From NCBI GenBank assembly GCA_004796365.1, contig QZLE01000074.1, positions 12,028 to 76,027 of the forward strand: DNA of 64,000 bases, written 5' to 3'. The notes beneath the pieces are model-generated. The model was not told where the DNA came from. It saw nothing but the letters and a program-made list of their open reading frames with translations, and did not search any database. This DNA is from Gammaproteobacteria bacterium (GTDB lineage: Bacteria; Pseudomonadota; Gammaproteobacteria; QZLD01). Positions 17,939-60,590 of the stretch are shown one piece after another. The position numbers and the translations under genes are program-made. Positions within the stretch are counted from its first letter, which is position 1, and each line of letters begins with the position of its first letter.

Positions 17939-19242
17939 TGCGACCGACTAACTTTCTATTATATATATTGCTTGTTTGGGTCGGAATTGCCTTTGCCTCA
18001 TCGCATGAGCTTGTATCTACTGATGTTTGGCAATTTTTTGGTATCTGTCTGATTTTTTTATCATCCTTAAATATTATTTTTCTTTACCTTATAAAAAAGC
18101 CACAAATTTCAAGAAAGGTCAACACCACATTGCCGGTAGGTGTTAAAAGCATGGTGTATATGACCGTTAGCAATATGTCTAAAAGAACAATTAAAGTTAA
18201 ATTAACCGATCACGTTTCACAACAGCTTAACCCCCAAAACGATGTCATAATTGAAACTATAAAAGGAATGCATGGGTGTACTGCAAATTATTCAATTGAG
18301 CCTATCTCGCGTGGGAATTTGCAGTTTTACCGAGTTGAGATTCTCTTATCTACGCCTTTTTCCCTATTTAGTATTAAACGCATGATTGATCTGCCCCTCG
18401 CTGTTCGGGTTTATCCAAATTTCTCTGAAATCACTAAATATACAATACTCGCGACAGATAATAATATTAGCCAGATGGGCATCAAAAAACGACAAAGACG
18501 TGGTGAGGGAATGGAATTTCACCAGCTACGTGAATATCGCCAGGGGGATTCATTACGCCAACTTGACTGGAAAGCAACGTCAAGGCACAAAAAACTAATC
18601 TCAAAAGAATACCAGGATGAAAGGGATCAGCAGGTTGTTTTTCTGATAGATTGCAGTCAACGCATGCGCTCTAAAGATGGTGAAATGAGTCACTTTGATC
18701 ACGCTTTGAATTCGATATTACTATTATCTTATGTAGCCCTAAAACAGGGAGATGCTGTTGGGTTTCACGCTATAAATGGTATTGATAGATCTTTGTCACC
18801 ACGAAAGAGTATAACTTCAGTCAAAAGCATTCTTAATTCTGTGTATGATCTTGAACCGACCCTATCCCCGCCGGATTTTATAACTGCAGCAACGAATTAT
18901 CTTAAAACTGCAGAAAAAAGATCGCTTATTGTTATTGTCACTAATGCGTGTAGTGAGGATACTCAGGAGCTAATTACAGCGATAAACATGCTGCGCAAAA
19001 ACAATCTTGTTTTAATTGCCAACCTTAAAGAAGAGTGTCTTGAAATTACTTTTGAAAGCGATATAAATAGCTTTGACCAGGCACTTATTTACGCTTCTGC
19101 TCATGAATATATGTATTACCGAAATAAGGAATTCTCATCTATTAGAGCCACAGGCATACAGTTTATTGATGTAATTCCTCAAAAAATGCCAGCGGCAATT
19201 GTTAACAGGTATCTTGATATCAAAGCATCATCCCAGCTTTAG
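17938..19242 (+). CDS. DUF58-family protein (vWA-like fold) with two N-terminal TM helices
   Basis: 434 aa. It has EFHQLREYRQGDSLRQLDWKATSR, the hallmark DUF58 segment, followed by QVVFLIDCSQRM (MIDAS-like position). TAATG overlap with the moxR stop. Confidence 0.8.
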   Translation: MRPTNFLLYILLVWVGIAFASSHELVSTDVWQFFGICLIFLSSLNIIFLYLIKKPQISRKVNTTLPVGVKSMVYMTVSNMSKRTIKVKLTDHVSQQLNPQNDVIIETIKGMHGCTANYSIEPISRGNLQFYRVEILLSTPFSLFSIKRMIDLPLAVRVYPNFSEITKYTILATDNNISQMGIKKRQRRGEGMEFHQLREYRQGDSLRQLDWKATSRHKKLISKEYQDERDQQVVFLIDCSQRMRSKDGEMSHFDHALNSILLLSYVALKQGDAVGFHAINGIDRSLSPRKSITSVKSILNSVYDLEPTLSPPDFITAATNYLKTAEKRSLIVIVTNACSEDTQELITAINMLRKNNLVLIANLKEECLEITFESDINSFDQALIYASAHEYMYYRNKEFSSIRATGIQFIDVIPQKMPAAIVNRYLDIKASSQL

Positions 19243-19386
19243 TTTATATATTCTATACACCCCAACTAACTTAGTTTTAACACAAGTGTTAAAGGGTACT
19301 CAATTCTATATTTATTATTGATTTTATCCTGATAACTCAAAAATTTACTCTAAAATTATTGTATCAATAGATACATATTTTAAAGA

Positions 19387-22300: not shown

Positions 22301-23016
22301 TTATCGAAATTGCAAAGACTGGGGCAGCAGCTATCGAGACAATCAACAAATCCGTATTTGATATTATTATGATGGATATTCAAATGCCAATATTAAACGG
22401 GATTGAAGCAACTAAAATTATAAGGAGAGAGCACAAAGAATTCGCTGATATCCCGATCATAGCCCTCACAGCAAATGTTTTGGAGTGTAATATTAAAGAG
22501 TATAGTGAGGCAGGTATGGACGGATTTATACCCAAGCCAATTGATTTTGCAGATCTTATATCGTCCCTAAAACAGTGGCTAAACATAGATAATAACGCCT
22601 TAATCTCTGAAACCAATAAAGAATCTGATGCTGTGTTAACTTGCCAATTACAGCAATCAGATACTATTGATCTTGCATCTGGATTAAAAAAGCTTGGAGG
22701 GAATAAAAAGCTGTATTATAAAATCCTGAATGACTTTGTAGATACATATAGACGTGAGAAAGAATCACTGTTTATCCTATTAAATGACAAGGACACTGAA
22801 ACTTTAAGTAGAAAGCTACATTCAATTAAAGGTATTAGCCTAAATTTAGGCCTTGATAATTTAGGTGAGATAGCTAGATCCGCTGAGCTGATAGTAAAAG
22901 ATGCTGGGTTAGATAAACAGAATGATTTTGAAAAAGCGCAAAGCCTCATTGAAAACTTCTATCAATTGCTTGAAGATGTTGCAGCTGAGCTAGATAAACT
23001 CCACATACTAAAATAG
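19387..23016 (+). CDS. 7TMR-DISM-type hybrid sensor histidine kinase (periplasmic DISMED2-like domain, 7 TM, PAS, HisKA, HATPase, receiver-like domain, REC, Hpt)
   Basis: 1209 aa. An N-terminal signal/TM is followed by a roughly 170-aa extracytoplasmic domain and then seven hydrophobic helices (aa ~195-400). PAS segment FTNSTAGMFEISYNGKVLYVNPQ; H-box SSSHELRTPMNAI; G-box [13 protein letters not shown]; REC DIIMMDIQMPILNG; Hpt LHSIKGISLNLG. Confidence 0.88.
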   Translation: MNKAGCPSISFKQAHIYFALIYTILCSFNASGFALHDSQERYIISPEAKLFEDADGISFQAVRNLPATSFKANEVDSVSIDDSSKFYWIKFQIKYYSNSPSHYRNWFMEIAAPSLDILDIYFIENGNTTSHHLGDDRPYRVRPVQHGNYIIDFRTHSKYETIAYIRVKNSISTKLPIRVWSHQALFSESQVLQYLAGICYGILLIMVIYNLATGITIKDKCYTYLAIYILTAFVCLISYDGSARQFLWPNSLWWESRALFFWECLVVFWGIQFSRNFIDLENNYPMLVKSLYSIQFSAVLCAIVSIIIPMNMFSIFMVFAYSIITFLFMIPVAKHAHKSEKLFFILAWLPLYVVTIVLIAGKIELFDFNINSINKRYLYYPLLTAQCLLLSLALTRRYNAIKNSKEKAEQYALGSLQRYKDLFTNSTAGMFEISYNGKVLYVNPQILQILGYDSEQELLKNDNALDTSLFVNAADRKRYLRLLLKNGRVTNFEFQFKRKNGEIAWGLVSSCLVTDSDSTEYVVSKPNIEGSIVDITASKEKESIEKRLIEAETSANVKSQLLASSSHELRTPMNAIIGFTSLLQKTELDEKQFNYSEKVRIAAKGLLRLINDILDNSKLEAGEMEIESVNFNLDKLLNEVVDMFAEPFNEKGIELILLKKPDVPVDLVGDPLRINQILINLINNAMKFTSEGYVAVTIEHIPGHDDGIDLYFTVSDTGAGIVPERCERIFDPYQQANSSVAKLFGGTGLGLSVCKNLIEKMGGQINVKSAVGQGSEFMFSMHLGIQQFVGNEIETYEELAGKTAFIIDSNKLAVEQLKDELSKFKINSVSAFSGEMALQRLISLGEADQYDFIIIERNLVDAPGINIIKELKTDSSTSKIPIALTSRTGFNDLSERDRNSGINELLVKPIKSNNLIKTLISIFNLDYVPPVQDENEHNELIGLFKDKRILLVEDNELNQELFTELLAGSGAIIEIAKTGAAAIETINKSVFDIIMMDIQMPILNGIEATKIIRREHKEFADIPIIALTANVLECNIKEYSEAGMDGFIPKPIDFADLISSLKQWLNIDNNALISETNKESDAVLTCQLQQSDTIDLASGLKKLGGNKKLYYKILNDFVDTYRREKESLFILLNDKDTETLSRKLHSIKGISLNLGLDNLGEIARSAELIVKDAGLDKQNDFEKAQSLIENFYQLLEDVAAELDKLHILK

Positions 23017-23118: not shown

Positions 23119-24291
23119 TTATACCACTGTTAACAGCATATAACCTGAAGAAAATCTGCCGCTTTCAGGAACAAAACACAATAGTCTTTCTCCTGCTTTC
23201 AGTTTTCCAGAATTAAATAACTCATCAAGAATAATATATATTGATGCCGAACCAGTATTTCCTTTGGAGTTAAGATTGGTAAACCACTTCTCTTCTGGAA
23301 TCGGATAATTCATCTCTTCCAGCTTTTCTAGGATTTTAGATCTGAAATATTCTGAAGATATGTGAGGTAGAAAATAGTCGATATCCTCAGGCTTGAGTCC
23401 CCTTTTTGCAATGACTTTATTGATGGTTTTTTCAATACAGTAATCAACAATGTTCTCATTGAGCAATTTTACATCTTGCTTGATAGCCATGATATTGTCT
23501 GAATACCATTCCTGATTGCTGAATTCACGCCAACCTACTAATGAGCCATCTTCCTGCTTTTGTGCGCCGGTATACATGCATGTCTCTATCTCATTGGCAT
23601 ATGAGTAGATATCAATCCATTCGATTTTTAATGACCGCTTACCCTTATTAGGTGTATTTTCTATTAAAACTGCACCAGCTCCATCTGAAAGCATCCAGCG
23701 TAAAAAATCTTTTTCAAACGCTAGCTCAGGTCTTTTATCTAGGTTATTAACCTTTTCTTCAATCTCGCCTTGATAGTACTCACCCTTAAAATGAGGTGAT
23801 GCTGCCTCAGATCCAGTAGCAACAGCATTTTCATGATCACCACTTAGAACAGATAGGTATGCATACTTAAGAGAGGTAAGACCCGCAAGGCATATACCAG
23901 CAGTTGAGATAACTTCACAAGGAGGATTTTTAAGTTCACCATGCACCATTACTGCATGACCTGGATTCATCTGGTCAGGCATTGTTGTACCGGAAGAAAG
24001 GCATTCAATTTCATCAACTGAAAACGAATCGCCTTCCAGGTTCTTAATGGCAAGCGCTGCAAGTTCAGCATTGGTATAAACAGCCTGCCTAGTTTTAGGG
24101 TCAAGTACATAGTACCTAGTCTCAATGCCATTGCTTTTAAGAATTATTTTTTTAGCTCTTGATGGTTTACCTCCAACCATTCCTAAAATATTCTCCATTT
24201 CATCATTGGAGACGGGGTCGTTGGGCATAAAGGCCGCAACATTTGTTATATATGCACTTATAGTATTATCCATTGATATTATCCATTTCAA
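23119..24291 (-). CDS. FabH-like beta-ketoacyl-ACP synthase III family protein, DarB-like
   Basis: 390 aa with a KAS III Cys-His-Asn triad in the contexts TAGICLAGLTS, FLPHISSEYF and KGNTGSASIYI. It overlaps the 3' end of the upstream DarA-like gene; the alternative start ATG 24273 would give an 8-nt overlap. Confidence 0.75.
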   Translation of the reverse strand: MKWIISMDNTISAYITNVAAFMPNDPVSNDEMENILGMVGGKPSRAKKIILKSNGIETRYYVLDPKTRQAVYTNAELAALAIKNLEGDSFSVDEIECLSSGTTMPDQMNPGHAVMVHGELKNPPCEVISTAGICLAGLTSLKYAYLSVLSGDHENAVATGSEAASPHFKGEYYQGEIEEKVNNLDKRPELAFEKDFLRWMLSDGAGAVLIENTPNKGKRSLKIEWIDIYSYANEIETCMYTGAQKQEDGSLVGWREFSNQEWYSDNIMAIKQDVKLLNENIVDYCIEKTINKVIAKRGLKPEDIDYFLPHISSEYFRSKILEKLEEMNYPIPEEKWFTNLNSKGNTGSASIYIILDELFNSGKLKAGERLLCFVPESGRFSSGYMLLTVV

Positions 24292-25240
24292 TTTTGTTCA
24301 TATTGAAATTATCAGAACCAGATGGCGCCTCAAAATATATCGCTTCTTTGCTTTTATTCTTCTTATTATTATATGACAAAGATATTAAAAATCTTATTAG
24401 CATAGGGATAGGCACCACTATAATTATCATTATTGTTAAGTATACCGCAAAAAGTAACAAAAAAGGGTAGCGAAGTATTGATTTCCGGGGCGCAATGAGC
24501 CTTAATAATTTTGACCAAACTTTAAATGCCCGGTGTCCAGATTTTTCACTAAAGATAAGTTTTTCATCAACCTCTGCAGCCTTATAACCTTGCAGCATAG
24601 ATTGGGATTTTAAATCTTTCTCTTCTTCGAAGCCCTTGATAATAGCACGCCCGAATCTCTGAGCATCCTTGATATCTTTAGGAGATATTCCAGGTTTAGG
24701 AAATATGCCGAATAGCGAATTTTTCTTACCTGTTAACAACCATCTTGTGACAGTTATGAAGTTTGCTATTGATCCCCCTCTGTCAACCAATACGGCGTTA
24801 TCTATATGTATTGCACCCAGGTCTAGTAATAATTTCTTCACTTTTTCCTGAGCCATCAACCACATGTTTCTGCAGCCAATAAGTGTAATTACCGGGGTAT
24901 CTTTAAACACCTTGGTAGCATAATCACTCTGCAAAAGTGCAGTAGCAGGTAGGGAGGGGGAGAGAAACCATACCTGATAGGCAAATATAATTAGGTCATA
25001 CTTTTGAGTCGGGGACTTAGGCTGATTAAGCGGAGGAGCATCCAAGGCAATACATTCAGGAAAAACATCAAAGAAACGAAAAAAACCCCATGGAAACTTG
25101 AACTCTTCTTGTACTGATATCTCTTCAAAAAAAAGTTCAATATCGCCAATATCGATTAGCGGAGCCGTAACCGAATCAACAACATCCTTCAGCTGTCCAG
25201 ACTGACTATAGTAAAAAACCAATATTTTACGTTTTTTCAT
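24266..25240 (-). CDS. DarA-like protein (dialkylresorcinol-condensing-enzyme family), flavodoxin-like N-terminus with C-terminal TM helices
   Basis: 324 aa. It has MKKRKILVFYYSQSGQL, YQVWFLSPSLP and LIGCRNMWLMAQEKVKKLL. These motifs match my recollection of DarA proteins encoded next to a FabH-like DarB. The family call has not been verified by search. Confidence 0.5.
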   Translation of the reverse strand: MKKRKILVFYYSQSGQLKDVVDSVTAPLIDIGDIELFFEEISVQEEFKFPWGFFRFFDVFPECIALDAPPLNQPKSPTQKYDLIIFAYQVWFLSPSLPATALLQSDYATKVFKDTPVITLIGCRNMWLMAQEKVKKLLLDLGAIHIDNAVLVDRGGSIANFITVTRWLLTGKKNSLFGIFPKPGISPKDIKDAQRFGRAIIKGFEEEKDLKSQSMLQGYKAAEVDEKLIFSEKSGHRAFKVWSKLLRLIAPRKSILRYPFLLLFAVYLTIMIIIVVPIPMLIRFLISLSYNNKKNKSKEAIYFEAPSGSDNFNMNKIEMDNING

Positions 25241-25263
25241 TATCTGACTTATTCAGCCCACAG

Positions 25264-26496
25264 TTAAAATCTGTAAGAAGTTTGCAGCATTATCATCTGC
25301 CAGTCTTTATGTAAGCTTCCGTTTTGCATTGAATAGATGAAATCTTTCATTGGAATCCATCCTGTACCTTCAACATCATGAAATTCAGCTCTAATAAGTA
25401 GAGAGTCAGAATAGTGCCATCCTAAACCAAGTACCCAGTTCTTTGCATAGAATGAGTGTGCAGGATATCCAGTACTTGCCTGAAGTCTAGCACCGTCTTT
25501 ATCGTTCTTATCTATATAGAGCACTCCATGACGCAGCATCAGCTCCCACTTTGGAACAAAACGATATGTGGATTGAAGGTAATATGATAGACCTTTTGTA
25601 TCCTGATCGGGAATAGGGGGTAGAAGGTTTAGAATTTTATTTTTTGTTGGTACGTATTCACCTACAAACTTCCATTTGTCAGTATTATATTCGGCAGATA
25701 GAAATTTTGCAGAAGTAGAAACTTCTGTTTCAGGAAGTATTCCATAACCTAAATTGCTATTGTTTATCTTGTATGCAGTGTAGCCATACGAAAGCCCGAT
25801 CCTAATTCTACCTGTATCGTGCTCATATAGAAGTTTTGCAACTCCTGTTTCACCATCTTTAATATCTCCAATGATATATCCTGGCGTTGCCAGAAGCTCT
25901 TTAACCGCTTCAGTGCTAGGATCTTTATTTGAACCAAGCAATCTAAAAGATAGAGAATTTGAAGACCAGCTGCGCATAGCAAATAACTCGAAACCATCAG
26001 TTGAATACATCCAATCCCTATATCTTTCAAGATACATTGATTGCGGAACTAGAATTCCTGGACGTGTAAATGCTACGTCTCTTGTTTCGTTATAAAATCC
26101 CTGAGGAGCTTTGATACGACCCGCTCTAACCCCTAATGACCAATCAACATCGTTTATGGCTGTGTAGGTTATAAAACCGTGGTCTAGCTCAATAGACCCA
26201 TCATCGCTTTTGCCGGCCTTTCTTGAAAGTAATGATGCTGAAAGTTGAAAATTTCTTAGAAAAGTAGTCGAGAAAAGAAATTCAACTTCTCTATAGTCAA
26301 GGCTAATATCATCATCGCTTTCGCCAAAGAAGTTATTGTTTGTAGTATGAATTAGCGATTGGCTTATATAACCGTCCCATCGAAAGTTTGAAAAAACTTC
26401 GTCTGCATTTACAGCAGTTGGTAGTAGCATCGTTACCACAAGGCTAAAAGCTAATTTTTTCTGTTTCTGATAGTTTCTATGCATAAGTTTATCCAC
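25264..26496 (-). CDS. Outer-membrane beta-barrel protein (porin-like, family unassigned)
   Basis: 410 aa. It has the signal peptide KLAFSLVVTMLLPTAVNA/DE, alternating-hydrophobicity strands throughout, and a C-terminus LQTSYRF whose terminal aromatic residue is typical of BAM substrates. Confidence 0.7.
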   Translation of the reverse strand: MDKLMHRNYQKQKKLAFSLVVTMLLPTAVNADEVFSNFRWDGYISQSLIHTTNNNFFGESDDDISLDYREVEFLFSTTFLRNFQLSASLLSRKAGKSDDGSIELDHGFITYTAINDVDWSLGVRAGRIKAPQGFYNETRDVAFTRPGILVPQSMYLERYRDWMYSTDGFELFAMRSWSSNSLSFRLLGSNKDPSTEAVKELLATPGYIIGDIKDGETGVAKLLYEHDTGRIRIGLSYGYTAYKINNSNLGYGILPETEVSTSAKFLSAEYNTDKWKFVGEYVPTKNKILNLLPPIPDQDTKGLSYYLQSTYRFVPKWELMLRHGVLYIDKNDKDGARLQASTGYPAHSFYAKNWVLGLGWHYSDSLLIRAEFHDVEGTGWIPMKDFIYSMQNGSLHKDWQMIMLQTSYRF

Positions 26497-26577
26497 TTAA
26501 GTTCCCTTTAAATCCTGGCTATGCTTATATAGCCTTTTAAGCATGCGTTAGAAAAATGGTCAAAGAGCTTCATTATA

Positions 26578-27021
26578 CTAGCGCATCGTTGTTCGTTTTA
26601 CATCTAATTCTACCCGTTTCACAGAATTAAGGTCGTTATCATAAAGTCTGTCTGTATAACCAATCGCACCCGGAGTTCGCTTGAGAATATCAATCATCTC
26701 TTCCTTGGTTTTAGCAACAATGGGCGGCTGCCCAAGACCTGAATACGTAACCCTATCCCACCCACCTTTTAGCTGATGAGGGAATATATTAAGGATCTTT
26801 TTACAAAACTCTTTATGTACTGTGGAGTTATTAGGCATTGTTACTACAGTAACTGGAAGGCCGTCAGGCCATTGTTTAAGCCTGAGGCTAAAGATTGCCC
26901 TTAACTCTCGATTAGTTAAGTATTCAAACTTTTGAGACGATGACGATTTGTTGGTGATTATATCTATTGCATAAGCACATGGTGAAAAAGCAATACACAA
27001 GACAAAGCATAGCAAAAGCAT
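26578..27021 (-). CDS. Small periplasmic PstS-like (type 2 PBP-fold) protein
   Basis: The track ORF extends to 27132, but ATG 27021 gives MLLLCFVLCIAFSPCAYA/IDI, a clean signal peptide (148 aa). It has REL(R)AIFS..WPDG, GAIGY and the PBP-like segment PHQLKGGWDRVTYSG. Confidence 0.55.
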   Translation of the reverse strand: MLLLCFVLCIAFSPCAYAIDIITNKSSSSQKFEYLTNRELRAIFSLRLKQWPDGLPVTVVTMPNNSTVHKEFCKKILNIFPHQLKGGWDRVTYSGLGQPPIVAKTKEEMIDILKRTPGAIGYTDRLYDNDLNSVKRVELDVKRTTMR

Positions 27022-27461
27022 ATTTCCAGCTCTTTTTGCATAATTTTCAATTGCTTGCGTTAATAACTTAATGTACAAAATTGAAAGATCCACGGTTACG
27101 AGCAATAAATACTCAATATCATTACCACACATGAAAGACAGATATTCAGCGGTCGTACATTATACATTAAAAATCTGTTGTAAAAAGGGGCATTACCAGA
27201 TTCTGATAAAGTAATTGCATACACTAAAATAAAATGCCTGTTTCAAATATTCTTGAGCTAAGTGTATCTGCTTGTTCTTACGACTAAATACAGTCCACAA
27301 TGGATAAATTCAGCCTTTTTTTCGTGAAAAGACCTGTTTATTTAATTATTTAGCAAACTTGATCACTTTTTTACCAATTTACCGTCCAAGATTGTGGTAT
27401 GGAGGGGTATATCAACTATATTTGTAATAGGAGATTGGCATCAAAAGTTATTGCAGGGAAT

Positions 27462-28067
27462 ATGATTATGACTGATCAGAATAACAATAGTAATACAAAT
27501 GACTATATGTCCGGTTCAAACGCCGAGTCGCCCGACCTAGACTGGAGTCAAGTCAGGGAAACCGTTTTTATTCTCAATCTTGCAGTTGGACAAATTCTTG
27601 CCTCTTTAAAAGATGGAAACGAAAGCATAGGTACCCTTTCTGATAATTTTATAAATATGGCAGGTGAGCTCACTGAGGTAGAACTGCTTGCAGGAAGAAT
27701 TTCTATTGATGCCGATCAACATATAAATACAGAGAGTAAAAAGCAAATCATAGAGCATTGCAAATCAGTTGCAGGATCCGTACAAAAATCAATAGTTACC
27801 TTTCAGTTTTATGATCGATTATGCCAAAGGCTTGAAAGAGTTTCAGATGGGTTAAACGGTGTTGCTGACATCATCGGCAATCCAGCAAAATTATACAACC
27901 CATTTGAGTGGAATAAATTACACCAGAAAATCCATACCAGCTATAGCACTGAAGAAGAGCGGCAGATGTTGGAGCTGATAAAAAATGGCTGTTCAGTTCA
28001 TGATGCTATAGAAAAAGTTGTTACGCAATCAGATATTTCTGATGAGGATTCAGTAGAGTTATTTTAG
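27462..28067 (+). CDS. CheZ-like protein (putative aspartyl-phosphate phosphatase), first gene of the phosphorelay operon
   Basis: About 201 aa from ATG 27462 (AGGGA Shine-Dalgarno upstream; the track ORF starts at 27399). It has [11 protein letters not shown] with D-x3-Q (Asp codon at 27813), which mirrors CheZ QDFQDLTGQ. The C-terminal tail is acidic and ends in hydrophobic residues ([12 protein letters not shown]), like the CheY-binding tail of CheZ, and the size is similar to CheZ. Confidence 0.45.
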
Positions 28068-30184
28068 TGGATAGTATGACAAACAAAATGCCAAAGATAC
28101 TTATAGTAGATGATCAGGAAATGAATATCTACGCCATGGAACAGGTGCTAAAAAATGTTGGCGCAGAGATCTTCACGGCTAAATCAGGTAATGAGGCTCT
28201 ATCCAGAATTCTTTACCACGATTTTGCACTAATACTGATGGATGTTCAGATGCCCGAAATGAACGGATTTGAGGCTGCTGAAATTATCCGTTCAAATGAT
28301 GAGACCAAATACACCCCTATCATATTTGTTACAGCAATAAACAAGGAAGAAAAATTTGTTGCACGAGGATACCAAACTGGCGCAGTGGATTATTTATTTA
28401 AGCCCGTTGATCCGGATATTCTTATAGCCAAAGTTAGCTTCTTTCTTGATTTGGCAAATGCGCATAATGAACTCAAAGAAAAGCAGTCGGAGCTGGAATT
28501 ATTAAATAACAAACTCATTGAAGAAAATGAAAGCCGTAAGAGAGCCGAAGAGGCTGCTCTAGAAGCAAGCAAGACAAAAAGCATGTTTTTAGCAAATATG
28601 AGTCATGAAATCAGAACCCCAATGAACGGGGTTATTGGTATGATAGGGCTCTTGCTTGATACGAACCTGTCTGATTTACAAAGAGAGTATGCGGAAGATG
28701 TTAAATTTTCTGCTGACTCATTACTTGGTATTATTAATGATATTCTCGATTTCTCAAAGATTGAAGCTGGCAAGCTAGACCTTGAGGTAATTGATTTTGA
28801 TTTACGAAACGCAATAAGTCACATTGTTTCTACTCTCAGACACAAAGCCCACGAAAAAGGTATTGCGATTAATTCTGAGATAGACGATCAAATTCCTTCT
28901 TCAATACGTGGTGACCCAACTAGACTAAGGCAAATCTTGCTCAACCTAACCGGGAATGCCATTAAGTTTACTCAGAAAGGCAGTGTAACGATCCAAATTC
29001 ATCTGGTTAGTGAGTCAACAAAAGACGCGACCATACGTTTTAATGTTATTGACACTGGAATAGGCATTGAAAACGAGCGACTAGGTAAGATTTTTGAGTC
29101 ATTTACCCAGGCTGATGACTCCACCACTAGGCAGTTTGGCGGTACAGGTCTTGGTTTAACAATATCTAAGCAGCTTATAGAGTTGATGAAAGGCTCTATT
29201 ACAGTTGAAAGCAAGATAAATGAGGGTACCAAATTTTCCTTTGAAGTAATGCTGGAAAAACAAAAGTTTGGAAGTAATGGTATTAGCCCGATTACTACTC
29301 AGCATGAGGATGATCAGCGAGCAGAGCAAAATACAATCGTACTTGATGATCAAAAAGTTGATAATCTTGGGACTGAAATTGTCGGCAAGAAGATTCTGAT
29401 TGTGGATAATGACCAGAAAACCCTAACAAATGTATCGACATTGCTTTACGATTTGGGATGTAATCCGCTTGTTACGCAAAGCGGAGCTGAAGCTATTGAT
29501 ATACTCATGACAACAGCGGCTAATAACGGCATTGATGTTGTATTAATTGATTCAATTCTATCTGACATGGACGGCTCTGATCTCGGCCAAAAAATACGGG
29601 GTATGAAACTTACATATACTCCTAAGCTAATAATGTCTACTGCAGTAGGGAAAAGAGGAGAGGGGGCCAAAGCTAAGGAGATAGGTTTTAGCGGTTATCT
29701 TTCAAAGCCAACAACGTCATCTCAATTGCATGACACAATCAGTGCGGTTATCCAAAGCAAAGAGAGCGACGATTCGTTTATTACCAAATACTCTTTTGCT
29801 GAAGCACAAAAAAGAGACGCCAACATTCTTCTTGTTGAGGATAACCAAATAAATAGAACTGTAGCTTCCGTAATAATCAAAAAATTTGGCTGCATGGTTG
29901 ATACTTCTACAAATGGCGAAGAGGCCATAAAGGCGCACCTTGAAAAGGATTATGACATCATACTAATGGATTGTGAGATGCCTGTAATGGATGGCTTCGA
30001 AGCAACAAAAAGCATTAGAGCAATGGATAATCATAAGAAGGACATACCAATAATTGCAATTACTGCATATGCAATGGAGGGAGATAGAGAAAAGTGTATT
30101 TCTGCGGGAATGGATGATCACATCACAAAACCTATTACAGCAAACGTATTAACAGGCCTGCTTGAAAGGTGGCTAAAAAAATAA
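28067..30184 (+). CDS. Soluble hybrid histidine kinase with architecture REC, coiled coil, HisKA, HATPase, REC, REC
   Basis: 705 aa. N-terminal REC ILIVDDQ...[15 protein letters not shown]...LFKP; H-box [14 protein letters not shown]; G-box [13 protein letters not shown]; middle [28 protein letters not shown]; C-terminal [28 protein letters not shown]. No TM or sensory domain is seen. The GTG start shares a base with the upstream TAG; ATG 28076 is an alternative start. Confidence 0.9.
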
Positions 30185-32847
30185 TGGCAGCAGAAAACGC
30201 AGAAAATACAAACCTTGTTATTGAAATGCTAAAGCATGAGATTGAGTATCTCAATGTTACAGTTCGCCTCGTAAAAGGTGAGCTCGAAAAAGAACGCAGC
30301 CACCGTAAAATTTTACAACTTCAACTTAAATCTGGTTCCATAGATACTGATCAACTTGAGTCTGATATAGAATCTATGAATGCTCCTGTTCATAGTAAAG
30401 ATATGTATTCTTTATTAGAACTAGAGGAACTTCTAAAGTATTTTGAAGAAAGCATTTCAGGTCTTTCTTCTGTCGATGGTTTCTTGTTCAATATAATTGA
30501 TTCAAGCAAGGAAAACCTAATTTGTGAACGCATCAAATTACCGCCAGCATATTATGGTGTAGAAGCCATGTATCGGAATTATAAATTCCCTTTAAGGCAG
30601 TTTGATGCAAACGTACATGCCTTTCGAGATCAGGTAACAATTTCAGTCGATGAGTCAAATCTAGACAACTATTCAGAAAGCACAAAAACACGATTTGAAC
30701 GCTGGAAAATGGAAAAGATGTTGGTAATTCCGATTATTCCTAATGATCGAGTCGACCCAATCGGCACACTTATGGTTTTTTCCCAGGATGGAAATATTGA
30801 TTCAAATTCAGTAAATTACATCGAAAAGCTACTACAAAATCTTCTTGTTCCGCTTAGCAACGCAATAAAATTTACAAGCCTTAAACGCAGAGAAAATAAT
30901 ATCAAACAGATAGAGGAAGAGCATATGCGTTTTTTGAGGTTTGTAGTTGAAATTAATAATCTAAATAATGTAGAACTCATTAGAGAGATAGTCTGCGAAG
31001 AGTTTTTATCAAGCTTCAATTTCGATGTTGCTTCACTTTTTATTCAGGAAGACGACAAATTAAAATGTTGTAAAACTGTCGTAAGTGAAGATGAATACAA
31101 CGATATTCAATCACAATGGACAGATTATTTTTGCAATGTTGACTATGAACTGAGTCTTAAAGACGGGAGTCCACCAACCTGTTTTTTGCAAAATGCGATT
31201 CAGCACATACCTGATACTGAAGAAATCATTCATCTTCCAATGTCAAAAATAGATCGCGACATTATTAATATAATGGGCGGCACGCCACATACAATGCTTT
31301 GCCTCCCTATTAGAGAACACTACCACCCTGTAGGTGTATTATGGATGTTTAGCTTGAAAAATCCTGTAAAGCTTACAGATCAACAACTAAAACTAATCGA
31401 GCTTTTATGTGTATTTGTGGGTGCAGAGATGGCGAATGCACAACTTTATACAACTGTTGAGCGCCAAAATATTGAGATTGAAGCGCTAAATCTTGACATG
31501 AGTGCTACTGTAAATGAACTTGAAGAGCACAAAAATAATCTGCAGTATCTGGTTAACGAAAAGACATATGACATAACGCTTGCAAAAAACGAAGCTGAAA
31601 GGGCCAATGCTGCAAAGTCAGAATTTTTAGCAAATATGTCTCATGAGCTTCGCACACCTCTAAATAGTATGCTAATGCTCACAAAGTTGATATTAAACGA
31701 TGATGAAAAAAACTTAACCCCTAATCAACTCGAGTATGCAAAAATAATTTACGAAAGTGGACAGAATCTTCTTCAGCTAATTAACGATATTCTCGATATA
31801 TCAAAAGCAGAATCTGGAAAGATGCAGATTGATCTGCTGAAGATTAATCTAATTGATCATCTGAATAGTATTATAGATATGTACAAAATATCAGTACATA
31901 AACAGCAGTTGTTCCTCAGACTCGATTTGAAGCAAAACATACCAACCTTTATTTATTCTGACCCACAGCGTTTAGAGCAAGTTATTGTGAATTTATTATC
32001 CAATGCAATGAAATTCACAAATAAAGGCGGCATTACAATCACTATATATTCACCTTTAAATAGTGAACTCTCAGAAGTACTGCCCGTTAAAGCAAGCACT
32101 GAATTTATTGCTATAACCGTTGAAGATACTGGTATAGGCATTTCGCCTGAAAAGCAAAAAAATATATTTGATGCGTTTATGCAAGCAGATGGATCAATAA
32201 GCAGAAATTATGGAGGAACAGGACTTGGTCTAGCTATCAGCAAAGAAATCTGCACATTGTTAAATGGAACAATAACTTTAGAATCTTCTGAAGGGCAGGG
32301 GAGTAAATTTACCGTATACTTACCTGTTGATCCCAAAGAAGCAAGTAAAGCCGATTCAGAGAGCGATGACCAATCGCTACTTTTAGCAACCAAGGAGCAG
32401 GTCGAGAAAATTAAAATTGAAGATATAAGAAAAGAAATGCCTGAAATCAATAAACCAGAGCAAGAATCAGAAAGTGAAGAGCAGAAAGAACAAATAATTA
32501 CTGGTGAGCATATCGATGGCCTTCCTATACTTATACTAGATAATGATATGCGCAATGCCTATATATTAGCCAATCAGTTACGACAAAAAGGGATGCATGT
32601 TGAGCTTGCTGATAGCGTGGAACTTGCAATTAATAAAATTAATGAAATTGAGTACATACACATAGCGATGATAAAGGGAATTGGTAATATTAAAAAAATT
32701 AAAAGTAACGTCGCTGAGGACACTATAATAATAGGCACTGATAACAACAACGACTTGAAGCATATCCAGGAAAATGGAGCCAGTATAAGCCTACAATACC
32801 CAGTTAACCCAGAAGCATTAGTTGCTGAATTACACCAGATGGATTAA
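30184..32847 (+). CDS. Cytoplasmic tandem-GAF histidine kinase with a C-terminal pseudo-receiver
   Basis: ATG 30184 overlaps the upstream stop (TAATG); the track ORF starts at 30169. It has an N-terminal coiled coil and two GAF-like blocks homologous to those in the 8006 and 60591 kinases. H-box ANMSHELRTPLNSM; G-box GGTGLGLAISKEI. The C-terminal ILILDND...IHIAMIKG domain lacks the phospho-acceptor Asp. Confidence 0.88.
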   Translation: MAAENAENTNLVIEMLKHEIEYLNVTVRLVKGELEKERSHRKILQLQLKSGSIDTDQLESDIESMNAPVHSKDMYSLLELEELLKYFEESISGLSSVDGFLFNIIDSSKENLICERIKLPPAYYGVEAMYRNYKFPLRQFDANVHAFRDQVTISVDESNLDNYSESTKTRFERWKMEKMLVIPIIPNDRVDPIGTLMVFSQDGNIDSNSVNYIEKLLQNLLVPLSNAIKFTSLKRRENNIKQIEEEHMRFLRFVVEINNLNNVELIREIVCEEFLSSFNFDVASLFIQEDDKLKCCKTVVSEDEYNDIQSQWTDYFCNVDYELSLKDGSPPTCFLQNAIQHIPDTEEIIHLPMSKIDRDIINIMGGTPHTMLCLPIREHYHPVGVLWMFSLKNPVKLTDQQLKLIELLCVFVGAEMANAQLYTTVERQNIEIEALNLDMSATVNELEEHKNNLQYLVNEKTYDITLAKNEAERANAAKSEFLANMSHELRTPLNSMLMLTKLILNDDEKNLTPNQLEYAKIIYESGQNLLQLINDILDISKAESGKMQIDLLKINLIDHLNSIIDMYKISVHKQQLFLRLDLKQNIPTFIYSDPQRLEQVIVNLLSNAMKFTNKGGITITIYSPLNSELSEVLPVKASTEFIAITVEDTGIGISPEKQKNIFDAFMQADGSISRNYGGTGLGLAISKEICTLLNGTITLESSEGQGSKFTVYLPVDPKEASKADSESDDQSLLLATKEQVEKIKIEDIRKEMPEINKPEQESESEEQKEQIITGEHIDGLPILILDNDMRNAYILANQLRQKGMHVELADSVELAINKINEIEYIHIAMIKGIGNIKKIKSNVAEDTIIIGTDNNNDLKHIQENGASISLQYPVNPEALVAELHQMD

Positions 32848-32849
32848 AG

Positions 32850-34988
32850 ATGTCAGAAGATAAGGTCAAAGTTCTAGTAGTAGATGACATTGAAGCAAAC
32901 CTGTTTGCTATGCAGCAGGTGCTAAAACCAATTGATGGTATAGAGATAATAACAGCTTCAAATGGCCGAGATGCATTAGATATTCTCAATGAACAAGAAA
33001 TTGCATTGGTCTTTTTGGATGTTCAGATGCCCGAAATGAATGGCTACGAGGTGGCCAGCAAAATTCAGGAGCTAGAAAACTATAATTGTGATGTGCCGAT
33101 AATACTGGTAACAGCTATAAATACAGAGGAAGAGTTTATATCAAACGGTTATCAAAGTGGTGCAATCGATTATATTTCTAAGCCAGTTAATAATGATATT
33201 TTAATAAAAAAGACTAAGGCGTTTGTTAAGTTATTTGAAAATAAGAAAAAGCTTGAGCAAGCAAATAAGCAGTTACAAATACTTTCAAACAAAAACGAAT
33301 CAATTCTGACCTTTGCAGGTGAAGGGATATTAGTTATATCTAAAGATGGTGCAATAATGCTTTCAAATCCCGCATCACAAAAGCTACTTGAGGTTGAGGA
33401 ATCCGAGATCATTGGCATGTCGATATGCGATATTATAACTACAGATGAAACAAAAAAGTATGGCTGGAATGACTCCGTACTTTACAAATGCGCTAACAAC
33501 AATAATACCTACCATATTGATAACACAGAATTTAGAAAAATAAATGGTCAGCGATTTCCGGTCGATTATACATTTTCACCTATAAAAGATGATCCAGATA
33601 CAGCAGGTATGATAATCTTCCGTGATATATCAATAAGAAAACATGCTGAAGAACAGCTAATAAAATTAGCAAGATATGACTCATTGACAGGCCTTGCCAA
33701 CAGATCTGTATTTAAAGATTCACTTGTCAGATCAATGGCTCGCGCGGCACGCCAAAAGCAGATGGTTGGTGTGATGTTTTTAGATCTTGATCACTTCAAA
33801 GAAGTAAATGATAAACACGGACATACCATCGGAGATCAGTTACTTATCAGTGTTGCCAATAGGTTACAAAAATGCATCAGAACAAATGATATGGCAGCAC
33901 GACTAGGTGGCGATGAGTTTGCAATAATTTTGGATTTGATCTCTTCATCTGATAATGCCGCCCATATCGCGCAAAAGATTATTGATACCGTTGGCGGGCA
34001 GCATGAGCTAGATGGAATATCAGTTTATATCAGCCCAAGCATCGGTATTACAATCTATCCAGGCGAAAGTGAAACCCCGGAAGATATCCTTAAATCTGCC
34101 GATTCTGCGATGTATCGTGCTAAAGAAGTTGGGCGTAATAATTATCAATTCTACGATAGAAAGATGTATGAAAAGGCCAGAGAGCGCGCACATCTGGAGA
34201 ATGAACTCAAAATTGCTACGATGCGTAATGATTTTGAACTATATTATCAGCCGCAAATATCGTCTAAAACCGGGCAAATATGCGGTTTAGAGGCGTTGCT
34301 AAGGTGGCCGCATTATGACTTTGGTATGGTTTCACCAGCTGTATTTATTCCAGCGGCTGAAAGCACCGGTCTCATCACGACAATTGGCGAATGGGTGTTG
34401 AGAACTGTATGCCAGCAGACACATGAATGGGTTGAGAAAGGTATTACAGGGCTTGATTTAACCGTTGCTTTAAACGTATCTACCAGGCAATTGCGAGATG
34501 GCACATTTGCAAAAATGGTAGAGGAGGTCATTAAAACATCACACCTTGAACCAAATCAGGTAGAAATTGAAATAACAGAAAGTACTATTATGGACGACCC
34601 TGAAACAGCAATTGCCGAATTGCAAAAGGTCCATGATCTAGGTGTTAAGATTGCAATGGACGATTTCGGTACTGGCTTTTCATCCTTAAGCTATTTGAAT
34701 ATGCTACCAATAGACACAATTAAGATAGACCAGAGTTTTACGAAAGATATCGGAGAAGATCCGAAAGATGAAGCAATAGTAAAAGCCATTATTGGTTTGG
34801 CGCATACCTTAGGGTTAAAGGTGATTGCAGAAGGTGTTGAGGAAGAATATCACGTTAATTTCTTGCGCGAAAACGGATGCGATATCTTGCAAGGTTACTT
34901 CTATAGTAGGCCGGTAGCTGTCGATATTATTACCGAGCTACTTACAGAAAATGACAGTGACCATAACAACACAGTACCAAAAAGTTAA
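32850..34988 (+). CDS. Response regulator with REC-PAS-GGDEF-EAL architecture (c-di-GMP turnover)
   Basis: 712 aa. [28 protein letters not shown]; PAS; GGDEF with RTNDMAARLGGDEFAIIL (intact I-site and A-site); EAL with EALLRW, EITES and DDFGTGFSS. Confidence 0.93.
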   Translation: MSEDKVKVLVVDDIEANLFAMQQVLKPIDGIEIITASNGRDALDILNEQEIALVFLDVQMPEMNGYEVASKIQELENYNCDVPIILVTAINTEEEFISNGYQSGAIDYISKPVNNDILIKKTKAFVKLFENKKKLEQANKQLQILSNKNESILTFAGEGILVISKDGAIMLSNPASQKLLEVEESEIIGMSICDIITTDETKKYGWNDSVLYKCANNNNTYHIDNTEFRKINGQRFPVDYTFSPIKDDPDTAGMIIFRDISIRKHAEEQLIKLARYDSLTGLANRSVFKDSLVRSMARAARQKQMVGVMFLDLDHFKEVNDKHGHTIGDQLLISVANRLQKCIRTNDMAARLGGDEFAIILDLISSSDNAAHIAQKIIDTVGGQHELDGISVYISPSIGITIYPGESETPEDILKSADSAMYRAKEVGRNNYQFYDRKMYEKARERAHLENELKIATMRNDFELYYQPQISSKTGQICGLEALLRWPHYDFGMVSPAVFIPAAESTGLITTIGEWVLRTVCQQTHEWVEKGITGLDLTVALNVSTRQLRDGTFAKMVEEVIKTSHLEPNQVEIEITESTIMDDPETAIAELQKVHDLGVKIAMDDFGTGFSSLSYLNMLPIDTIKIDQSFTKDIGEDPKDEAIVKAIIGLAHTLGLKVIAEGVEEEYHVNFLRENGCDILQGYFYSRPVAVDIITELLTENDSDHNNTVPKS

Positions 34989-35273
34989 CTTACCGAGAAT
35001 AAATTGGCAGCTTAGAATAAACATAATATGAGCACAAAGCCTATTTAACATAATATGTATTATGCGCAATTAGATATAGAGGCACGGCTGCTTTGTATTG
35101 CATTATTTCTGTTTACTGGAGTATAAATAATTATACGTGCAGATTATTGTTTTATATGTAAAATCTAGAACTTTTATCCAACATAACTACTCTAATATTA
35201 AAGGAGAAATGCATTTTAAACCCTAGAATATGGATTGAAATAGTTCTTGTTAATATGAATAAAGGCAGCAACA

Positions 35274-35498
35274 ATGTTAAATAGTTTCGTTTATTCCACT
35301 TATGATGAGAATACTGAAAGCTGGGAAATTAATAGGAATGGATTTGTCTTTAAGTGCACATATATTCCTGGTGATGACTGGGTTGAGGTTTATTGCCCGG
35401 AAATATCAAGCGTACCACAAGGAGCTGAAGCCAAAAAAATGGACTATCATAGAATAGCTGATTTTCTGGCTTCAGAAATACTTAGATACGCTGCATGA
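35274..35498 (+). CDS. Hypothetical small protein (74 aa)
   Basis: This is an ORF only, with no recognisable motif. It lies in an AT-rich gap, and AAAGGCAGCAACA precedes the ATG with a weak Shine-Dalgarno. Confidence 0.3.
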   Translation: MLNSFVYSTYDENTESWEINRNGFVFKCTYIPGDDWVEVYCPEISSVPQGAEAKKMDYHRIADFLASEILRYAA

Positions 35499-35511
35499 CA
35501 CCTCAAAGAAT

Positions 35512-35919
35512 TTAAGCAAATCTATCCTTTTTAGAAGTGGTTAAAGAATTAAGACCGCTTTTGCGGACTCTTTTAATGTTTGAGCGAGCAAGAACCTTAT
35601 ACTCATCTACTACATCTTCACCAAGAACTTTCAAATCTTTCATATCATGACTGAGTTTATACATTAACGCATTTCTCATCTCAGCTTGATTGATTAGATA
35701 CGCTTTAAGCGGCTCACTTCCATCTTTTAGTTGAGATAGCTGGCTAACTTGGTCAGCGCTATACGCGTAACAATCAGTTAACTTATGCGTATTGTAATTA
35801 CCGCACTTTTGTATTGTTTCGACAGCAAAATTAATTGTCGATTTCACGTTTGGCGCTGTTGTTTCGGCATAGTTTTTTAGGTAGTTATCTACCTGTTTTT
35901 TAAGTTTTTGGTTGATCAT
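35512..35919 (-). CDS. Hypothetical protein (135 aa, predicted helical and soluble)
   Basis: This is an ORF with a codon pattern similar to its neighbours, but I recognise no family. Confidence 0.4.
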   Translation of the reverse strand: MINQKLKKQVDNYLKNYAETTAPNVKSTINFAVETIQKCGNYNTHKLTDCYAYSADQVSQLSQLKDGSEPLKAYLINQAEMRNALMYKLSHDMKDLKVLGEDVVDEYKVLARSNIKRVRKSGLNSLTTSKKDRFA

Positions 35920-36119
35920 CAGTCAATTCCAGCTAAATATCGGTATAACAATTAACATCCTGTGAAAAAAACGTATGTCCATACCTTAGTAATTATTATC
36001 CAAATAACTGCTGCACCGCAACATACCAGTTCATATTTCTGGGGAAAATATTCACTCATTAAACTGCAAAGTTAATCTTAATTATAAATATGCGCAGTAA
36101 TGCAATGATATTAAATGAT

Positions 36120-36170
36120 AATATGCGTTCAAAAAAATGATATATCAGATAATAATTCTGAACGCATATT
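36120..36170. repeat. 12-bp perfect inverted repeat just 3' of the EamA gene
   Basis: AATATGCGTTCA (36120..36131) pairs with TGAACGCATATT (36159..36170) around a 27-nt loop. A third direct copy of AATATGCG lies at 36087..36094. Confidence 0.6.
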
Positions 36171-36173
36171 TAT

Positions 36174-37055
36174 CTATTCAGCTATTTTTTTTGCACTTTC
36201 TTGTTTGGTTAATACAAAAAGTGCTAAGCCAATTATTACAATTGCCAAGCCGATCCATTGTTGATTTATTACTTTTTCATTATTTGCAAACACACCCAAA
36301 AGCATTGCAAAAACTGGTGTCATAAGTGTTATCAAACCAACACTTACTACATTCATTTTTTGCAGAACGAAATAATATGCTATAAATCCGATTACTGATC
36401 CCCCTATTGCTAGATAGATTATAGATAACATATTAATTATGCTTATATGATTTGGTATTGTGCCGTCTATGCATGCCCACGCAACAATATAAAAAGCAGA
36501 TGATACAAACAATGTACCTGTTGTTTGCCCTAGTGGATGTAACTCAGTACCTGTTAGCTTCACGCATATTGTACTTACATTGAATAGAAGTACAGCAAAT
36601 AATATTATTGCTATTCCTGTTAACCCAGCGCTTTCATTGACATTTTTTCCAAATACTAAGGATAGTCCTGCTATTGATATAATGATTGAAAAAACTTTTT
36701 TAGTAGTGAGGAACTGCTCCTTTAGTATCAATGCCGCAAGAATCGCAGAAATAATCGGTGTTAACCCAAACATTATAGAGATTAGACCGGACGGGACATA
36801 AGCTGACCCCCAATAAACACAAAGTAATCCACCAAATGCCCCTATTGCTCCCGATATATATGCAGCAATAGATTTTTTATCAAAAGGAATGGCTATTTTG
36901 AACAGCTTGCAAGTTGCATATGCAAAAAATGCCGCAGCTACCATACGTAAAGTTACAGCAGCAACAAAGCTCACACTTCCTGAGCTGAGAGTTATAGCAA
37001 GTGGTGTTGTTGACCAAATTACAACGACTAATATATAGCAAGCTATGATCGGCAT
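36174..37055 (-). CDS. EamA/DMT-superfamily transporter
   Basis: 293 aa, about 10 TM helices in two internally similar halves, as is typical of EamA-domain duplication. Confidence 0.8.
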   Translation of the reverse strand: MPIIACYILVVVIWSTTPLAITLSSGSVSFVAAVTLRMVAAAFFAYATCKLFKIAIPFDKKSIAAYISGAIGAFGGLLCVYWGSAYVPSGLISIMFGLTPIISAILAALILKEQFLTTKKVFSIIISIAGLSLVFGKNVNESAGLTGIAIILFAVLLFNVSTICVKLTGTELHPLGQTTGTLFVSSAFYIVAWACIDGTIPNHISIINMLSIIYLAIGGSVIGFIAYYFVLQKMNVVSVGLITLMTPVFAMLLGVFANNEKVINQQWIGLAIVIIGLALFVLTKQESAKKIAE

Positions 37056-60507: not shown

Positions 60508-60590
60508 TTAGTTTCTCCTTAAACAATATTTTAGAACTAGCAAATATTATAGAAATCAATTGCTACAATTATAGGTAATTATACATTTTC

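Follow-up and report, generated by a model that had tools for sequence, protein, structure and literature searches.

A 64,000-nucleotide stretch of DNA from an uncultured Gammaproteobacteria bacterium (NCBI GenBank assembly GCA_004796365.1, contig QZLE01000074.1, positions 12,028 to 76,027 of the forward strand), referred to below as the window, contains a tightly packed operon of four genes, which we call g1 to g4. The operon encodes a small helical-hairpin protein, two histidine kinases, and an enzyme predicted to control the turnover of cyclic dimeric GMP (c-di-GMP). The hairpin protein, g1, resembles CheZ, the phosphatase of phosphorylated CheY in beta- and gammaproteobacterial chemotaxis (Escherichia coli structure 1KMI). 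Sequence comparisons place g1 in a separate large family, which is either analogous to CheZ or extremely diverged from it, and not among the detectable members of the CheZ family. We propose that g1 is probably a receiver-directed negative regulator, with the predicted activity of a CheZ-analogous phosphatase. More tentatively, g1 may define a new, widely distributed class of auxiliary phosphatases acting on response regulators, convergent with CheZ or diverged from it beyond recognition. Such proteins would serve non-flagellar receivers: those of hybrid kinases and c-di-GMP enzymes in the window, PilR in Methylophaga, and CheY or CheB of F7-type chemosensory systems, for which no CheZ is known. 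The potentially important part of the system is the g1 family, which is large, rich in motifs, and present in contexts where a CheZ-like activity is expected and no CheZ is known. The original prediction, made for the operon from the sequence of the window, passed over the very large size of this family and its recurrence in chemosensory, PilSR, and phosphorelay contexts, which we consider the main point.

The features of the operon are:

27133..27467: presumed operon promoter region, a 335-bp divergent intergenic segment in which no element was identified

27468..28067, plus strand: g1, 199-residue helical-hairpin protein, with alternative starts at 27462 and 27399

28067..30184, plus strand: g2, 705-residue soluble hybrid kinase, REC1-HisKA-HATPase_c-REC2-REC3 (Pfam)

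30184..32847, plus strand: g3, 887-residue soluble kinase composed of an N-terminal coiled coil, GAF-A, GAF-B, HisKA, HATPase_c, and a pseudo-receiver

32850..34988, plus strand: g4, 712-residue REC-PAS-GGDEF-EAL protein

The open-reading-frame listing and direct reading of the sequence gave four co-oriented frames on the plus strand (27399/27468–28067, 28067–30184, 30169/30184–32847, and 32850–34988). The stop codon TAG of g1 (28065–28067) overlaps the GTG start codon of g2 at 28067 by one nucleotide (TTTTAGTGGAT), and the stop codon TAA of g2 (30182–30184) overlaps the ATG of g3 at 30184 (AAATAATGGCA). The third junction, TAA-AG-ATG, leaves a gap of two nucleotides (32848–32849) between g3 and g4. 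The tight coupling of the four genes through TAGTG, TAATG, and the 2-nt gap, as claimed originally, is confirmed by both kinds of reading and by the conservation of the junctions in relatives. The start of g1 had been placed at 27462, which is possible, but the ATG at 27468 fits better: AGGGA lies eight nucleotides upstream of it, it yields the 199-residue NCBI model, and it coincides with the start of the family alignment. None of the four proteins contains a transmembrane helix. The highest Kyte-Doolittle mean over 19 residues is 1.71 and falls within the EAL fold, which bears out the claim that the system is entirely cytoplasmic. The GC content is about 37%. A scan for sigma-70 promoter and intrinsic terminator consensus sequences found fewer sites than in shuffled sequences and is uninformative about the operon boundaries, and an Rfam scan of positions 26500–36200 at E ≤ 1 found no riboswitch and no small RNA.

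The complete set of g1–g4, with the same tight junctions and all of the catalytic motifs, is also present in four related metagenome-assembled genomes (L005, L092, L093, and L094; L and P numbers are our labels for loci and proteins). Their proteins are identical to those of the window operon in 67–81% of positions for g1, 77–83% for g2, 66–75% for g3, and 80–88% for g4. The catalytic residues are conserved across all of the orthologues compared, five in the case of g2. Since gene order, junctions, and motifs are kept in relatives, the operon is real and under selection. The more distant relative L006, whose g1 is 50% identical, has a three-gene version, g1-g2-g3, without g4; therefore, g1-g2-g3 constitutes the conserved core. 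About 1.4 kb downstream of g4, L005 encodes a single-domain receiver of 122 residues (18883–19251); in the window, a search with a receiver hidden Markov model (HMM) detected no equivalent behind g4.

The sequence of g1 is 100% identical to that of NCBI protein D6B28_04535. Direct annotation of g1 by searches of Pfam and NCBIfam and by sequence and profile searches of the PDB gave zero matches. A profile search at E ≤ 1e-3 retrieved at least 1470 clusters (50% identity), 579 of them below 1e-10, and within the Gamma- and Betaproteobacteria relatives of g1 occur in at least 566 genomes at the species level. The hosts include Zoogloea, Methylophaga, Methylomonas, Ectothiorhodospira, Competibacter, Dechloromonas, and Gallionellaceae. 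The family has no Pfam or NCBIfam model, and most of its members are labelled "hypothetical protein". A few UniProt entries are named "Chemotaxis protein CheZ" and are hypothetical at NCBI; the basis of the naming could not be traced.

The protein g1 carries the motif FQFYD116RLxQ120 and a C-terminal tail ending in D-S-V-E-L-F. In an alignment of 55 diverse family members, no substitution occurs at Q113, Q120, W148, G174, or the C-terminal Phe, and 54 sequences have D116, the single exception being consistent with a sequencing error. Across the family, at least 90% of members retain D116. The conserved features of the family are an N-terminal box, the motif (A/S)FQFYD(R/K)LxQRL, a P-x-EW box, and the C-terminal tail. 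The tail, [DE][DE]x[IV]E[LF]F-COOH, follows a variable linker and forms the extreme C-terminus of nearly all members. The family lacks a conserved His, and the possibility that g1 is a hidden Hpt protein was rejected for this reason. The AlphaFold2 (AF2) model of g1 (mean predicted local distance difference test score, pLDDT, 73) consists of a long helical hairpin (residues 26–77 and 88–137), followed by three short helices and a disordered tail. D116 and Q120 are located on the second helix of the model.

The resemblance of g1 to CheZ (PF04344) lies in its overall plan. Both are small soluble proteins built on a long helical hairpin, a predicted one in the case of g1; both have an Asp and a Gln four residues apart on the second helix (D143/Q147 in CheZ and D116/Q120 in g1); and both end, behind a variable linker, in an acidic, hydrophobic peptide whose last residue is Phe. 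CheZ is found inside che operons, as are some members of the g1 family. At the motif level, g1 thus has the DxxxQ on a hairpin helix that characterizes CheZ. Unlike CheZ, however, g1 shows no detectable similarity to CheZ sequences or profiles, the conserved N-terminal and P-x-EW boxes of its family have no counterpart in CheZ, and the tail of the family is shorter (DDIELF versus DDLLDSLGF). Whereas CheZ is linked to CheY and CheA, g1 of the window is not linked to cheY or cheA and adjoins hybrid kinases and a c-di-GMP enzyme instead.

The genomic surroundings of g1 homologues were scanned at 80 loci with HMMs built from the domains of the window, and selected loci were checked with Pfam. At seven of the loci, the g1 homologue directly follows a STAS gene within a complete chemosensory operon. 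The order in L061 (1–12546) is cheY, cheA, cheW, a gene for a methyl-accepting chemotaxis protein (MCP) with PAS and CZB domains, cheW, parA, STAS, g1, cheR, cheD, cheB, and a second MCP gene. An operon of the same type in L039 (1–16245) is followed by genes for a REC-PP2C-HATPase protein and a PAS-kinase-Hpt protein. No cheZ was seen in the che loci that bear g1 within the sampled 16.5 kb. L061 and L039 resemble the ancestral (stage 1/2) F7 clusters, in which the order cheY-cheA-cheW-aer2-like MCP-cheR-cheD-cheB-MCP is accompanied by STAS and serine-phosphatase genes (PMC7184735). Ancestral F7 clusters are reported to possess cheY and to lack cheZ (Ortega et al. 2020, PMC7184735). The resemblance concerns relatives of g1, whereas the window operon itself has no che genes.

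In another six of the 80 loci, of the Methylophaga type (L017, 139–3760; L013, L019, L029, L053, and L081), g1 overlaps the 3' end of pilR, which encodes a REC-sigma54-HTH protein, downstream of pilS, which encodes a 6TM_PilS kinase. The overlap suggests a link to the regulation of type IV pili. L066 has the order REC-g1-HK-REC-REC-Hpt (HK, histidine kinase), an Hpt gene adjoins the g1 homologue in L076, and natural fusions join g1 to an N-terminal Hpt domain (P0368) or to an N-terminal STAS domain (P0354 and P0385). The che, pilSR, and hybrid-kinase contexts, together with the Hpt and STAS fusions, support a receiver-directed function of the g1 family, which is tied to receiver-based signalling repeatedly, not obligatorily; catalysis is unproven by context. 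A gene with a GGDEF or EAL domain is located within 4 kb of g1 in about 10 of the 80 loci, a frequency not clearly above expectation that we did not use as evidence. As separate observations, pilY1 lies upstream of g1 in L006, and fimW and a REC-PAS-GGDEF-EAL gene are found nearby in L007.

The other three proteins of the operon have the domain architectures that were originally predicted, according to Pfam and, for the second GAF domain of g3, to model comparison. Both kinase cores retain intact canonical H, N, G1, and G2 boxes, in agreement with the claim of two kinases. The parts of g2 and g3 are:

28091..28450, plus strand: g2 REC1, residues 9–128, complete receiver (DD, D, T, K)

28577..29254, plus strand: g2 kinase core, HisKA residues 171–235 and HATPase_c residues 282–396 (Pfam)

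29390..29746, plus strand: g2 REC2, residues 442–560; acceptor Asp, Thr, and Lys present, Asn at a Mg-ligand position, DxxMP absent

29822..30172, plus strand: g2 REC3, residues 586–702, canonical hybrid-kinase receiver (ED, D, T, K)

30421..31443, plus strand: g3 tandem GAF sensor module, about residues 80–420

31612..32331, plus strand: g3 kinase core, HisKA residues 477–545 and HATPase_c residues 593–716, H-box MSHELRTP

32527..32832, plus strand: g3 C-terminal pseudo-receiver, residues 782–883 (Pfam E 0.0055 and residue mapping)

Pfam recognizes in g2 three Response_reg domains (E 5e-72), HisKA (7e-21), and HATPase_c (6e-30), and the H-box of the translation reads MSHEIRTP. With its intact H, N, G1, and G2 boxes and an attached complete receiver, g2 is a hybrid histidine kinase. 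Alignment to CheY places an Asn of REC2 at the position of the Mg ligand D13. The acidic pair reads D-N-D in the clade of the window, whereas the more distant L006 has D-D-D. The Asn thus arose recently and only in this clade, in a receiver that is conserved in other respects. Judged from these residues, the phospho-competence of REC2 is doubtful. Of the four receivers that had been called apparently competent, three stand (g2 REC1, g2 REC3, and the receiver of g4), whereas g2 REC2 is put in doubt by this D13N-type change.

In g3, Pfam identified one GAF domain (residues 268–415, 7.5e-6), HisKA, HATPase_c, and a weak Response_reg match (residues 782–883, E 0.0055), and missed the second, N-terminal GAF domain. 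The AF2 model of residues 1–469 contains two alpha/beta modules linked by a long helix, and Foldseek aligned it to the tandem GAF-A/GAF-B domains of PDE2A, PDE5A, PDE6, and CyaB2 over 370–440 columns with E of 1e-13 to 1e-10, which bears out the second GAF domain proposed earlier. Two diguanylate cyclases with the architecture GAF-GAF-GGDEF (P0387 and P0388) have N-termini that are 35–40% identical to the module. A sensor of the g3 type is thus wired straight to c-di-GMP synthesis elsewhere. The search with the module returned only these two proteins and missed the window's own kinase and its orthologues, probably because of a word-index limit. The C-terminal receiver of g3 is indeed the pseudo-receiver that had been predicted, as both the acceptor Asp (D57 position) and the Lys (K109 position) are missing in all of the orthologues.

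The g4 protein matches REC, PAS, GGDEF (6.7e-52), and EAL (1.3e-75) in Pfam, and its motifs are intact: DD, D, T, and K in the receiver; RTND-x5-GGDEF, which combines the RxxD I-site with the active site; and EALLR, DDFGTG, and EGVE. These motifs support its predicted role as the c-di-GMP output enzyme, and at the motif level g4 resembles bifunctional REC-GGDEF-EAL regulators of the Lpl0329/RavR type. An assignment of g4 as DibA phosphodiesterase (NCBIfam equivalog NF045675) was rejected, since its score of 503 bits is below the cut-off of 980.

The operon lacks an Hpt domain, as determined by Pfam at E ≤ 0.01 and a custom Hpt HMM, and no stand-alone Hpt was found in the window. The Hpt domains of the window are fused to the kinases at 8006 and 19387, in agreement with the original prediction. 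With no Hpt in the unit, the operon does not form a complete His-Asp-His-Asp phosphorelay. The transfer of phosphate from receiver to receiver requires an Hpt intermediate, and the original inference, that the hybrid kinase would have to use an Hpt in trans or employ its receivers as sinks, is reasonable. REC1 of g2 and the receiver of g4 are 53% identical, compared with 23–43% for all other pairs of receivers in the window, and they have a near-identical alpha-1 segment, ExN(I/L)(Y/F)AM(E/Q)QVLK. Because this segment is the usual seat of partner specificity, the two receivers probably share a phosphoryl donor.

Based on these features, a mechanism can be proposed in which g1–g4 would be transcribed together and would specify a branched two-component circuit, located wholly in the cytoplasm, that governs the turnover of c-di-GMP, with g1 as its predicted CheZ-like terminator. 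We regard this arrangement, read from sequence, as an evenly balanced proposition. The tandem-GAF kinase g3 may bind an intracellular small molecule and autophosphorylate. Since its own C-terminal receiver is dead, g3 would have to phosphorylate external receivers, the best candidates being REC1 of g2 and the receiver of g4. Phosphorylation of the g4 receiver would shift the balance between the diguanylate cyclase and phosphodiesterase activities. Phosphorylation of REC1 would gate the kinase core of g2, which would transfer phosphate intramolecularly to REC3, where the phosphoryl group might await an Hpt supplied in trans or be drained. For REC2, the Asn substitution makes a regulatory role more likely. 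The long hairpin of g1 may dimerise into a four-helix bundle, and its acidic tail, ending in VELF, may dock on a phosphorylated receiver, so that D116 and Q120 speed dephosphorylation in the manner of D143/Q147 of CheZ. The signal on REC1-type receivers would thus be ended by g1, and the receiver of g4 would be a second target. As g1-g2-g3 persist in L006 without g4, the conserved target of g1 is probably the REC1-type receiver of g2.

Several results weigh against a CheZ-like g1. The label "CheZ-like", which the original prediction gave to g1, has no database support, and its basis is motif, fold class, and gene context. None of 26 family members matched the Pfam CheZ model PF04344, even at E ≤ 10; NCBIfam gave g1 no match; and PDB profile searches with the family did not retrieve CheZ. 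The HMM of the family scored CheZ sequences at 0–2 bits. Comparison by hhalign with an alignment of 12 CheZ sequences from enterics, Cupriavidus, Ralstonia, a Pantoea plasmid, and Photobacterium gave a probability of 0.2–0.3%, with the motifs out of register. The wider diversity of CheZ in this alignment was recovered by tblastn on plasmids and chromids, as a protein search with E. coli CheZ had given only relatives at least 78% identical. An earlier hhalign match to the single E. coli CheZ, which paired D116/Q120 with D143/Q147 at E 0.49, was rejected because the register was lost against the 12-sequence alignment. A Foldseek search of the PDB with the g1 model yielded nothing at E ≤ 0.001, and its matches at E ≥ 0.05 were generic hairpins, mainly cytoplasmic domains of chemoreceptors; for a fold of two helices, such matches carry no information. 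As a motif, DxxxQ on a helix is short, and the wiring is inferred from the similarity of sequences alone. Both kinases retain the H-E-x-x-T phosphatase motif, and a separate phosphatase is therefore not strictly needed. The earlier description of g1 as a dedicated phosphatase keeps the support of the DxxxQ motif, the helical hairpin, and the acidic C-terminal tail, but every test of homology to CheZ failed. We do not file g1 under CheZ because these tests were all negative; that it works like CheZ, as a predicted activity, is our leading hypothesis.

That no homology to any known phosphatase was found speaks for g1 as a non-catalytic adaptor, inhibitor, or scaffold, which would use its hairpin and tail to bind a receiver, the DHp bundle of a kinase, or a STAS or Hpt protein. 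Such a protein would tune signalling without hydrolysing the acyl phosphate, like the kinase inhibitors FixT, Sda, KipI, and Legionella Lpg0279. The STAS fusions and the adjacency of STAS genes at seven of the 80 loci could point to partner-switching, and a precedent is lpg0279, an accessory gene that lies upstream of a kinase/REC-GGDEF-EAL pair and regulates it negatively (bioRxiv 10.1101/604611). We nevertheless consider a non-catalytic g1 unlikely, since a near-absolute Asp/Gln pair, one helical turn apart in an otherwise variable helix, is more typical of catalysis, and the architecture of the putative terminal docking tail mirrors that of CheZ. It is much less probable still that g1 is functionally unrelated to the kinases and only co-transcribed with them, the family having its role elsewhere and most members being orphans. 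This reading draws on the observation, which also counts against a CheZ-like role, that about 45 of the 80 g1 homologues have no two-component or other signalling gene within 4 kb, as in Methyloprofundus and in Zoogloea, where the order is murB-g1-cupin. However, the family is connected to signalling modules in no fewer than five independent ways, by linkage (che operon, pilSR, and hybrid kinases) or by fusion (Hpt and STAS), and the 1-nt overlap of g1 with g2 is retained in relatives. The branched wiring also has a competitor, a linear cascade in which g3 phosphorylates only REC1, the g2 kinase is thereby switched on and phosphorylates the g4 receiver directly, and REC2 and REC3 serve as intramolecular phosphate sinks, an idea already contained in the original prediction. 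The order of REC before the kinase core in g2 suggests receiver-gated activity, the operon has no Hpt to move phosphate on from REC3, and g2 and g4 are its best-conserved proteins. The presumed specificity helix common to REC1 and the g4 receiver nevertheless argues for a single donor, a hybrid kinase normally loses its phosphoryl group to its own tethered receivers, and L006 retains g1-g2-g3 without g4, so that the linear cascade appears doubtful to us, and we favour the branched circuit.

The operon is a clade-restricted variant of a kind that is already known. The original statement that no characterised relay has this layout holds as worded, but systems of a similar kind occur: operons with an accessory protein, a kinase, and a REC-GGDEF-EAL protein in Legionella (lpg0279-0277, Lpl0330-Lpl0329) and Xanthomonas (RavA-RavR) (bioRxiv 10.1101/604611), and operons with several kinases and receivers but no Hpt, such as RedCDEF. 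The RedCDEF "four-component" system of Myxococcus xanthus is encoded by one operon with two kinase-like proteins, several receivers, and no Hpt; the roles of phosphatase and sink fall to one of the kinase-like proteins and a dual receiver. Its output, in contrast to that of the window operon, is a developmental timer and not c-di-GMP; it has no separate hairpin protein, and its architectures differ. Most two-component systems are thought to depend on the phosphatase activity of the kinase itself, and dedicated receiver phosphatases are known for a few pathways only: CheZ, CheC/CheX/FliY, Rap, and Spo0E. If members of the g1 family are CheZ-style terminators, signal termination of this type would also reach hybrid kinases, PilR, and ancestral F7 chemosensory systems, and two-component signalling would gain a general control point. 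The family would then supply a candidate "missing CheZ" for the F7 clusters, and more than 1000 "hypothetical proteins" would gain a name and a testable function. The operon, with two kinases, four receivers, one pseudo-receiver, and one c-di-GMP enzyme, is a compact, all-soluble test bed for in vitro reconstitution.

In Legionella pneumophila, lpg0279-lpg0278-lpg0277 (Lpl0330/Lpl0329) are co-transcribed and encode a negative accessory regulator, a kinase, and a bifunctional REC-GGDEF-EAL protein (bioRxiv 10.1101/604611). An accessory gene, a kinase, and a REC-GGDEF-EAL regulator thus stand together, as in the window, and phosphorylation sets the balance of cyclase and phosphodiesterase activities in Lpl0329 (10.1101/604611). 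Whereas g1 is a hairpin protein, the accessory protein of Legionella is a FIST/NosP-type sensor, and its operon encodes one kinase in place of two, has an atypical H-box, and includes neither a hybrid kinase nor a tandem GAF. As summarised in the same preprint, the cytoplasmic kinases RavA/RavS of Xanthomonas likewise control a REC-GGDEF-EAL regulator that switches between cyclase and phosphodiesterase, RavR, in which phosphorylation alters this balance (10.1101/604611). The Rav system differs from the window operon in sensing through PAS and not GAF domains and in having neither an accessory phosphatase-like gene nor a REC-gated hybrid kinase.

A cluster of four genes on the minus strand (23119–27132) diverges from the operon, and the window contains further signalling genes:

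19387–23016: 7TMR-DISMED2/7TMR-DISM-PAS-HisKA-HATPase-REC(weak)-REC-Hpt kinase, RetS/LadS-like but with an Hpt domain

23119–24291, minus strand: StlD/DarB-family beta-ketosynthase (NCBIfam NF005293, 617 bits against a cut-off of 450; DarB model, 528 against 550)

24266–25240, minus strand: protein with a weak flavodoxin-like N-terminus (PDB 3klb, E 0.0012)

25264–26496, minus strand: protein without a match in any library tried

26578–27132, minus strand: protein with a weak match to PBP_like_2

59533–60507, minus strand: GGDEF protein

60579–63998+, plus strand: HK-REC(weak)-REC hybrid kinase, running past the end of the window

The ketosynthase cluster divergently adjoins g1–g4 in L005, L092, L093, and L094, and not in L006. 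Enzymes of the StlD/DarB type produce dialkylresorcinol-type molecules. Such molecules have been linked to biofilm formation in Pseudomonas chlororaphis (PMC6403133). That the product of the cluster might be the ligand of the tandem GAF domains of g3 is pure speculation. L005 and L093 likewise keep the 7TMR-DISM kinase of 19387 next to the operon, and this kinase is possibly the nearest candidate donor of an Hpt. Altogether, the 64-kb window encodes at least five histidine kinases and at least two c-di-GMP enzymes.

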